In this document: piece after piece, positions 11,973 through 12,902 of the stretch
Position numbering within the stretch: position 1 is the stretch's first letter
Layout: each line of letters starts with the position of its first letter
Assembly: GCA_022340885.1 (NCBI GenBank)
Contig: JAJDND010000107.1
Location: forward strand, 9,722-73,721
DNA length: 64,000 nt
Source: Desulfobacterales bacterium
GTDB taxonomy: Bacteria; Desulfobacterota; Desulfobacteria; Desulfobacterales; UBA11574
Direction: 5' to 3'
Made by a program: the position numbers and the translations under genes
The notes under the pieces: model-generated
Seen by the model: only the letters and a program-made list of their open reading frames with translations
The model's database searches: none
Told to the model about the DNA's origin: nothing

Positions 11973-12902
11973 ATGGAAGCCAGCAGAAAGAGGGAGTCGA
12001 TGAAAATCGTACCGCCGGGAAAGAAGAAATGTGTATGGATGGAGGCCGGAGTTGTTTCCTATAAACTGTGCGACAACAATTTTGACTGCTCTACCTGCGT
12101 ATACGACCATGGCATGCATGAAAGGGTTGCCCGGTATAAAGAAAAAGTTGCCATGCAACCTGTTGAAACAACGCCTGATAAATTTACCGAAACATGGGCG
12201 GACAAGATGATGCAGCTTCCGGCCAGCCGTCGTAAATGCCGCTATATGATCACCGGAGAAGTGGTTCGCAAAATATGCCCCAATGCCTATGAGTGCGGCA
12301 CATGCTCTTTTGATCAGATGATGCAGGAACGACTGCAGACAGATACGCTTCCGGTGCATGCCGTGAGCCAGGAAAGCGGGTTTGAGATGGCCGAAGATTT
12401 CTACTACCATGAAGGCCACACGTGGGCCAAACCGGAATACGGCGGACGTGTGCGGGTGGGGCTGGATGATTTTGCGCAAAAACTGATCGGCCGACTCGCG
12501 AGGATTGAACTGCCGAATATCGGACAGGAAATAATACAGGGTAAGGTGGGCTTTCAAGTCAGACGCAATGGCGAAATCGCCAAAGTGCTTTCTCCCATAG
12601 ACGGTATCGTGACCAAGGTGAATGACGCGCTTCGGGATCAACCTGATCTGGCCAATGAATCTCCCTATGAAAAGGGGTGGCTGTTCACCATCGAGCCGAC
12701 AAAACTGCGCAAAAATTTAAAAGAACTCTTCTATGGACAAGAAGCTCATAATTTTATCAGCGAGGAAAAAGAAAAGCTCTTTGCCATGGCCAACCAGGAT
12801 CTGCGCGTGGCTGCAGACGGCGGTGGTTCGGTCGAAGATATTTCCCAAGAACTCGAAGGCGAAAAATGGGCCAAGTTTGTCAAAAACTTTCTTAAAACCT
12901 GA
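11973..12902 (+). CDS. GcvH-fold (glycine-cleavage H-like) protein with two N-terminal 4-Cys modules
   Basis: A strong RBS (AAAGGAGGA) precedes the start. The C-terminal half (YYHEGHTWAKPEYGGRVRVGLDDFAQKLIG...SPIDGIVTKVN...PYEKGWLF) follows the GcvH pattern. Residues 18-52 and 87-121 are two copies of C-x2-M-x2-G-x-V-x2-K-[LI]-C-x-N-x-[FY]-[DE]-C-x-T-C-x-[YF]-D. Confidence 0.75.
   Translation: MEASRKRESMKIVPPGKKKCVWMEAGVVSYKLCDNNFDCSTCVYDHGMHERVARYKEKVAMQPVETTPDKFTETWADKMMQLPASRRKCRYMITGEVVRKICPNAYECGTCSFDQMMQERLQTDTLPVHAVSQESGFEMAEDFYYHEGHTWAKPEYGGRVRVGLDDFAQKLIGRLARIELPNIGQEIIQGKVGFQVRRNGEIAKVLSPIDGIVTKVNDALRDQPDLANESPYEKGWLFTIEPTKLRKNLKELFYGQEAHNFISEEKEKLFAMANQDLRVAADGGGSVEDISQELEGEKWAKFVKNFLKT

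Follow-up and report, generated by a model that had tools for sequence, protein, structure and literature searches.

In the ZraP/ZraSR and CpxP/CpxAR systems, the main adjacent target of a two-component system is a small accessory protein which binds metal and exerts feedback on the kinase. ZraSR is of the sigma-54-dependent NtrC type, in Cpx a protease removes the accessory protein, and both ZraP and CpxP are periplasmic and helical. DsrC is a protein-borne cysteine substrate of the CCG-domain enzyme DsrK and carries two C-terminal cysteines. For the archaemetzincin family (peptidase M54), we know of no physiological substrate or partner. In LbpA, a GcvH-like protein of the sulfur-oxidising sHdr systems, the lipoyl-lysine is strictly conserved, and two cysteines near the N- and C-termini of the H-domain are conserved too (Cao et al. 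2018, PMC6067878). Here we analysed a stretch of 64,000 nucleotides (the window, to which all positions refer unless a contig or locus is named) from a Desulfobacterales bacterium, positions 9,722 to 73,721 of contig JAJDND010000107.1 in assembly GCA_022340885.1. A gene at 11973-12902 on the forward strand encodes GcvHL, a 309-aa GcvH-like protein with eight conserved cysteines, which lacks the lipoyl-lysine and has its tightest partner in a cassette of a histidine kinase, a sigma-54 activator and an archaemetzincin.

The gene was delineated from its open reading frame (ORF) and translation, Pfam matches, a homologue alignment and an AlphaFold model, and the sequence AGGAGG is located 7 nt 5′ of its ATG. 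GcvHL is a cytoplasmic protein of three parts: two Cys4 modules, a GcvH fold without the lipoyl-lysine, and a conserved C-terminal tail. An earlier note on this DNA, made from the sequence alone, had numbered the residues correctly and misplaced the gene start, since it gave the feature as 12024-12902; position 12024 marks where module 1 begins, and the ORF starts at 11973. The tail (12765-12899, + strand; homologue alignment and model) consists of a helix and an A-A-D-G-G loop, with the helix W299...F306-L307-x-T at its very end, and was also found in paralogues. GcvHL thus exceeds the GcvH core by 135 residues at the N-terminus and by 45 at the C-terminus.

The GcvH-fold domain (residues 144-264; 12402-12764, + strand) was recognised by Pfam, by alignments and by superposition. 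Pfam GCV_H (PF01597) spans exactly these residues with an E value of 7e-26, and the AlphaFold model of GcvHL (predicted local distance difference test score, pLDDT, 79.6) matched the solved H-proteins 1onl, 3klr and 3ab9 in Foldseek with template-modelling (TM) scores of 0.89-0.91 and root-mean-square deviations of 1.5-1.7 Å. The GcvH fold, which the earlier note had read in the C-terminal half, is genuine and its register is not in doubt. In HMMER alignments to 1onl (Thermus), 1dxm (pea) and 3a8i (E. coli), the hairpin is ungapped and the lysine of ESVK faces Gly200 (12570-12572), at the hairpin tip R197-R198-N199-G200. In a MAFFT alignment with 150 diverse representatives the same column holds G, A, D, S, E or N and Lys is not conserved, and structural superposition also puts Gly in the lysine column. 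The glycine that the note had counted to this position, and for which it had asked for an alignment against the GcvH family, was thus found by the alignments, three of them independent, and by the superposition. Residues 199-201 contain no Lys, and the K of EIAKV (K204), which the note had named as a possible occupant of the site, lies four residues past the tip and is unconserved.

Residues 136-309, comprising the GcvH domain and the tail, are also without any cysteine. GcvHL scored below the cut-offs of TIGR00527 (79.8 against 115.85), NF002270 (93.6 against 117), NF045810 GcvH_rel_desulf (40.7 bits against 150) and TIGR03077 not_gcvH (53.7 against 144). Judged by its sequence, GcvHL cannot carry lipoate. 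Because the lipoyl-lysine is lost, we propose that the GcvH barrel serves as a cofactor-less docking scaffold. A canonical gcvH was not detected in the genome itself, the assembly of which is 89% complete; gcvT and gcvP were absent among the annotated neighbours of GcvHL, and the whole genome was not searched for them.

The N-terminal part of GcvHL contains two copies of a module with the spacing C-x12-C-x5-C-x2-C, module 1 at residues 18-52 (C20, C33, C39 and C42; 12024-12128, + strand) and module 2 at residues 87-121 (C89, C102, C108 and C111; 12231-12335, + strand), both supported by repeat alignment, conservation and a module profile. The two copies align without gaps, with 15 of 35 residues identical and the four cysteines in register, and a hidden Markov model (HMM) of the module built from other proteins matched both copies of GcvHL (E values 1e-17 and 2e-16). 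The duplication claimed in the earlier note was borne out, and the internal repeat is not due to chance. All eight cysteines and W22 are invariant in an alignment of 37 homologues with identities down to 27%, and each of the four cysteine columns is 100% Cys across 697 module instances from 452 non-identical relatives, so that the repeats are conserved where the note had allowed that they might not be. The module consensus is C-[IV]-W-M-x-A-G-V-V-x-Y-K-L-C-x3-[FY]-[DN]-C-x2-C-x-[FY]-D.

Because the four cysteines are strictly invariant, a metal centre is favoured for the modules: each most likely holds one, of the Fe-S, Fe or Zn type, and the note's suggestion of metal- or Fe-S-binding modules is retained as probable metal binding. 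In the model of the isolated N-terminal domain (pLDDT 81.7), the modules are compact (pLDDT 80-90), and in each of them the first two cysteines lie on a short beta-bridge and the C-x2-C pair at the start of a helix. Pfam and NCBIfam profiles gave zero matches to the first 136 residues of GcvHL even at E = 10, and a Foldseek search of the PDB with the isolated N-terminal domain model found no relative at E <= 0.001. Within the own genome, the module HMM matched solely GcvH-like proteins, with the module in front of the GcvH-like domain. A search for stand-alone module proteins with the 119-aa N-terminal query recovered only 21 short fragments, mostly singletons, on short contigs or marked partial. 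On the evidence of these searches, the module domain is an undescribed, strictly conserved Cys4 domain without a solved relative. Selenocysteine (Sec) was considered as a replacement of a module cysteine, which would have pointed to a redox-active thiol, and was rejected, as the sole in-frame TGA in a homologue (genome G169) proved to be a frameshift. This homologue (locus L176, G169:C59, ~29750-30630) is frameshifted after residue ~190, as a pseudogene or through an assembly error, and keeps the eight cysteines.

Upstream of GcvHL, three genes on the + strand form a cassette, arranged as an operon. The first encodes a sensor histidine kinase with PAS_4, PAS, GAF, HisKA and HATPase_c domains (7605-9671; Pfam, sequence and kinase alignment), in which the first PAS domain bears C-x11-C-x2-C. 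The second encodes an NtrC-type response regulator (9726-11078) with a receiver (Response_reg), a sigma-54 AAA+ activator domain (Sigma54_activat, E value 5e-72) and a Fis-type helix-turn-helix (HTH_8). The third, which begins 6 nt past the regulator gene, encodes an archaemetzincin (11085-11642; Pfam PF07998, E value 1e-29) carrying HELGHSFGITH and a Cys4 second zinc motif; HExxH-x5-H is intact in 105 of 107 cassette M54 proteins.

To describe the conservation of the cassette, we compared a set of 80 orthologous loci (62-86% identity) from uncultured Desulfobacterales and Desulfatiglandales and a further 40 loci, taken from other genomes, that encode two-module paralogues of greater divergence. 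The activator and M54 genes were located upstream in 64 of the 66 assessable orthologous loci; among the paralogue loci, the activator was adjacent in 32 of 40 and M54 in 28 of 40. Of the 401 genomes sampled from the phylum, 110 contained the GcvH-like family, and 102 of these 110 also encode M54, which gives an odds ratio of 66 (Fisher p 6e-48, with no correction for phylogeny). The own genome encodes nine GcvH-like paralogues, and its contigs C163 and C109 repeat the layout of kinase, activator, M54 and GcvH-like gene, giving three cassettes in all; three of its four M54 genes lie within such cassettes. All these indicated that the cassette of kinase, sigma-54 activator and M54 is the tightest partner of GcvHL, a connection that the earlier note had not made, and that it is widespread among bacteria of the sulfate-reducer type, where it often lies next to heterodisulfide-reductase (Hdr) genes. 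A literature search, including the D. autotrophicum HRM2 genome, syntrophic sulfate-reducing bacteria, LbpA and the DvH sigma-54 regulome, found neither the family nor the cassette described. The other two cassette kinases (L020:11091-12665, - strand, and L022:10362-11921, + strand) also have a Cys-rich PAS domain, with C-x10/11-C-x6/8-C-P; both are shorter, and at their start lies a stretch that Pfam does not match and that opens with a Rossmann-like V-G-G-G motif. The Cys-rich PAS domains and the V-G-G-G motif suggest that the cassette kinases may sense redox state, Fe-S or NAD(H).

The region between M54 and GcvHL contains a putative sigma-54 -24/-12 promoter, TGGCACAGACCTTGCT (11893-11908, + strand), which ends 64 nt before the ATG of GcvHL and is the sole zero-mismatch match to TGGCAC-N5-TTGCW in the window. 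It is one of 15 perfect sites in the 3.55-Mb assembly; another of the 15 precedes a paralogue, and one-mismatch sites precede two further paralogues of the own genome. Upstream of the orthologues the site is perfect in 70 of 79 cases and has one mismatch in 7 more, and a site with at most one mismatch was found at 35 of the 40 diverse paralogue loci. The same assembly encodes 35 sigma-54 AAA+ activators, against the 15 perfect sites. Further upstream, two enhancer-like palindromes of the form TGCCGAA-N3-TTCGGC(A), the distal TGCCGAATATTTCGGCG (11675-11691) and the perfect proximal TGCCGAAAATTTCGGCA (11775-11791), lie 100 bp apart; sequence and genome searches showed them to be the only such pair in the assembly.

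Downstream of the gene, a predicted intrinsic terminator (12926-12978, + strand) has a 19-bp G+C-rich stem and a U7 run, with a centroid of -35.4 kcal/mol; the minimum free energy of the 91-nt stretch is -38.7 (z = -5.5), and 0 of 200 shuffles folded as well. Neither a sigma-54 promoter nor the same palindromes were found when hdrL, the gene that follows, and the hdrC of contig C163 were searched for them. Because a promoter and a terminator are present and hdrL is without a sigma-54 site, the GcvHL gene is predicted to be a monocistronic sigma-54 unit whose own transcript ends before hdrL. In the manner of a sigma-54/NtrC regulon, the locus combines a -24/-12 promoter at the proper distance, an adjacent activator gene and two predicted upstream activator sites.

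Fusions further link the family to histidine kinases. In sequences from independent assemblies, grouped into 14 clusters, the N-terminal input of a histidine kinase consists of a one-module GcvH-like unit. At Syntrophales-type loci, this kinase fusion is found at the cassette position that the unfused protein (277 aa) takes in a relative: both come after nrfC, nrfD and a gene for a membrane-anchored GcvH-like protein without a module, and both kinds of loci converge on the genes for M54, the activator and a kinase with HAMP. The operon on two Syntrophales-type contigs (L174/L175, 4600-9500) begins with a small membrane protein, a Tat-signal NrfC-like protein and an NrfD-like protein, and continues with the membrane-anchored, module-less GcvH-like protein and then the one-module GcvH-like protein or its histidine-kinase fusion. 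The M-A-D-G-G-D motif of the small membrane protein resembles the A-A-D-G-G of the GcvH-like tail.

The gene following GcvHL is hdrL (13253-17683, + strand), which Pfam identified as a fusion of an HdrA-like part with an NAD(P)H-binding, glutamate-synthase-like part. It has one in-frame TGA, a Sec codon at 13430-13432 within an N-terminal HdrA-type motif, ...N-D-C-S-M-U-I-I-S-P; the earlier note had called the Hdr complex Sec-rich, which was verified for that codon only. The mvhD-like, hdrA, hdrC, hdrB, metV and metF genes lie further downstream (18084-25283, + strand; Pfam), and their membership of the system is uncertain. Among the orthologous loci, HdrL was located downstream in 20 of 57. 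In the paralogue set, Hdr-type ORFs were present within 10 kb at 26 of the 40 loci, compared with a background of 17% for 20-kb windows chosen at random. In seven genomes, a paralogue is followed on the same strand by hdrC and hdrL, the spacing between genes ranging from an overlap of 4 nt up to 124 nt, and at the Pfam-annotated locus L070 the paralogue is followed by hdrC, hdrB, hdrL and an hdrA-like gene, the cluster lying behind a sigma-54 site.

Redox-enzyme links were also found within single proteins. Three proteins (P0191, P0203 and one on contig C126 of the own genome) fuse a NuoG-type 2Fe-2S/4Fe-4S domain with a module and GCV_H, and P0192 fuses three GCV_H domains, without Cys modules, to FAD oxidase and HdrD-like CCG domains. 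Contig C126 (L021:9784-11106, 11557-12495) carries an operon of FdhA, 4Fe-4S, NuoE, NuoF (1011 aa), NuoG-like, NuoE and NuoF genes, which closes with the fusion of a NuoG N-terminal domain, Cys module and GcvH-like domain; beyond it lie a perfect sigma-54 promoter and a GcvH-like gene with two modules. On contig C165 of the own genome (L023:744-3209), an 822-aa protein joins, in frame, an NAD-dependent epimerase/NmrA-like Rossmann domain with one Cys module and a GcvH-like domain; it is unlikely to be an assembly artefact, because the unrelated representative P0177 has the same architecture.

The association with Hdr is real, looser than the link to the cassette, and recurrent but facultative. 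The earlier suggestion that GcvHL serves the adjacent Hdr complex, for which co-occurrence with hdrL clusters had been proposed as a check, is partly supported: across the family, the neighbourhood enrichment, the clusters headed by paralogues and the HdrD-like fusion speak for a link to Hdr-type genes; for GcvHL itself it was weakened by the separate sigma-54 promoter, the terminator of -35 kcal/mol and the minority of orthologous loci in which HdrL follows.

Taken together, we tentatively read GcvHL, at a little short of an even chance, as a redox adaptor or sensor of the Cys4-metal type, inducible and built on an H-protein scaffold without cofactor, rather than as a lipoate carrier, with probable feedback on the kinase and with M54 acting on it. 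The data establish the lipoate-free H-protein fold, the new and invariant 2 x Cys4 domain, the layout of promoter and terminator, the conservation of the cassette with its archaemetzincin, and the fusions; metal binding, docking partners, electron transfer or sensing and the task of the protease are inferred. The PAS/GAF histidine kinase would phosphorylate the NtrC-type activator, which would bind the palindromes ~105 and ~205 bp upstream and open the -24/-12 promoter, and the strong terminator would stop the GcvHL transcript ahead of hdrL. GcvHL would then be the inducible output of the cassette and probably also a feedback input. As a detachable redox module, it may dock through the H-protein barrel on flavin/Fe-S oxidoreductases, for which the candidates in the own genome would be HdrL-MvhD-HdrABC-MetFV and, at a paralogue locus, NuoEF/Fdh-type complexes, and its Cys4 centres may pass or report electrons. 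The co-encoded archaemetzincin probably processes GcvHL or turns it over.

Several observations weigh against this proposal. Unrelated housekeeping genes lie downstream in 37 of the 57 orthologous loci, and gene order therefore does not tie the orthologue group to Hdr. Given the missing sigma-54 promoters of hdrL and the C163 hdrC, the cassette of the own genome visibly controls GcvH-like genes only. The partners are heterogeneous (Hdr, NuoEF/Fdh and NrfCD), so that no single enzymatic partner can be named, and the co-occurrence of the family with M54 was calculated by a statistic that ignores phylogenetic relatedness. A purely regulatory role explains the cassette data equally well, in which GcvHL would be a self-regulated target and feedback modulator that handles no metabolic electrons, its Cys4 modules sensing redox state, oxygen or metal and M54 removing it and so resetting the system. 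The closer adjacency of the cassette than of Hdr at orthologous loci, the monocistronic unit with its unique pair of enhancer sites, the recurrent kinase fusions, the co-occurrence with M54 and the Cys-rich PAS domains are all in its favour. Such a loop with its own modulator as sole output would need an additional effector function, however, and the NuoG-type Fe-S wire and HdrD-like fusions, like the paralogues heading hdrCB-hdrL-hdrA operons, are hard to explain outside electron-transfer chains; we regard it as possible and on the doubtful side. In a more specific form of the earlier note's idea, GcvHL might be the counterpart of LbpA or DsrC without lipoate. As a protein-borne substrate of thiol/disulfide or metal-thiolate type, it would be reduced or oxidised by HdrB, the CCG-domain subunit of the neighbouring HdrL-MvhD-HdrABC-MetFV complex, in place of the heterodisulfide, which non-methanogens lack. 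Its position directly upstream of hdrL-mvhD-hdrA-hdrCB-metVF, the paralogues at the head of hdrCB-hdrL-hdrA operons, the fusion of three GcvH-like domains to an FAD-oxidase-HdrD-like CCG protein and the modelled C-x2-C pair at a helix N-terminus would fit this role, and a first gene with a terminator would give more carrier than enzyme. We nevertheless consider it unlikely: the majority of orthologous loci are without Hdr, other paralogues lie beside NuoEF/Fdh or NrfCD genes with no CCG protein, the absolute invariance of four cysteines is more in keeping with a metal site than with a dithiol, no Sec stands in place of a module cysteine although the organism uses Sec, and the P0192 fusion is without Cys modules.

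Two further explanations touch on the cysteines and on the public annotation. With its eight invariant cysteines in two compact modules, its tight linkage to a zinc metalloprotease whose active site is intact, and several cassettes per genome that adjoin different Fe-S enzymes, GcvHL might be a metallochaperone, an Fe-S/Zn donor or assembly factor, or a substrate or pro-protein of the archaemetzincin, induced by the two-component system. No similarity to known Fe-S scaffolds or carriers was seen, and the histidine-kinase and NuoG-type fusions would be unexpected for a chaperone, which makes this quite improbable. Public database names of GcvHL-type proteins include 'glycine cleavage system H protein', and the Pfam GCV_H match agrees with an ordinary H-protein; the absent lipoyl-lysine contradicts this, and the scores under the equivalog cut-offs, the N- and C-terminal extensions, the lack of gcvT/gcvP among annotated neighbours and the nine such paralogues in a genome with no canonical gcvH detected leave it hardly any probability. 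A redox adaptor or sensor with kinase feedback is the reading that we carry forward.

Thousands of such genes bear the name 'glycine cleavage system H protein' in their annotation, and the missing lysine shows that this name is wrong. The family is common, occurs in multiple copies and is tied to a conserved sigma-54 signalling cassette, which also gives the archaemetzincins a concrete genetic context. The second substrate of the Hdr/MetFV and NuoEF-type complexes is an open question in anaerobic bioenergetics, and GcvHL is a testable candidate partner for the bacterial complexes of these types in the Wood-Ljungdahl pathway. It is conceivable, if still rather unlikely, that the cassette is an unrecognised and widespread cytoplasmic redox system of anaerobes, in which GcvHL would act through its Cys4 centres as the protein partner long sought for the non-methanogenic HdrCB-HdrA/L-MvhD-MetFV and NuoEF-type bifurcating complexes, be it as electron acceptor, donor or redox reporter, and would be the first physiological substrate or partner of an archaemetzincin. 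Elsewhere in the window, the ORFs at 3787-5616 (609 aa) and 27269-28480 (403 aa) had no Pfam match at E 1e-8.

Compared with the known systems, GcvHL shares with GcvH (PF01597, TIGR00527; 1onl, 3ab9, 3klr) the barrel-sandwich fold and the motifs H-x-W, G-x-D-D-F-A, S-P-x-x-G and P-Y-x-x-G-W, and differs in the Gly at the lipoyl-lysine position, the eight invariant N-terminal cysteines, the conserved tail, the predicted sigma-54 control, the multiple copies and the lack of a gcvT/P context among annotated neighbours. Like LbpA, GcvHL belongs to the GcvH-like proteins and has its gene next to Hdr-type genes, and it is conceivably a protein partner of a CCG-domain enzyme. Membership in the LbpA family was considered and rejected: GcvHL is without the lipoyl-lysine and without the two H-domain cysteines, its neighbour is of the HdrL/MvhD/HdrABC/MetFV type rather than sHdr, and no lipoate ligase gene was seen in its annotated neighbourhood. 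DsrC is similarly a small cysteine protein, and GcvHL may likewise serve a CCG-type (HdrB/D-like) enzyme, being encoded apart from or ahead of it; the folds are unrelated, the two C-terminal cysteines of DsrC stand against 2 x 4 invariant ones in GcvHL, and an enzyme link of GcvHL is a prediction from gene context. Cofactor-less lipoyl/GcvH-like barrels in redox complexes are also represented by the N-terminal barrel-sandwich hybrid of RnfC (PF13375) and by DUF2118, both of which the relative P0192 matches weakly; these barrels are built into large subunits as integral domains and have no Cys4 modules, and the similarity is weak. In contrast to the ZraP and CpxP accessories, GcvHL is cytoplasmic, combines a GcvH fold with Cys4 modules and is unrelated in sequence, and its feedback is suggested by the kinase fusions only; PspA with PspF offers a further analogy for a signalling accessory. 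The cassette protease resembles the archaemetzincin AmzA (M54, PF07998) in its HExxHxxGxxH and second Cys4 zinc motif, and differs from it in being fixed in a bacterial sigma-54 cassette.

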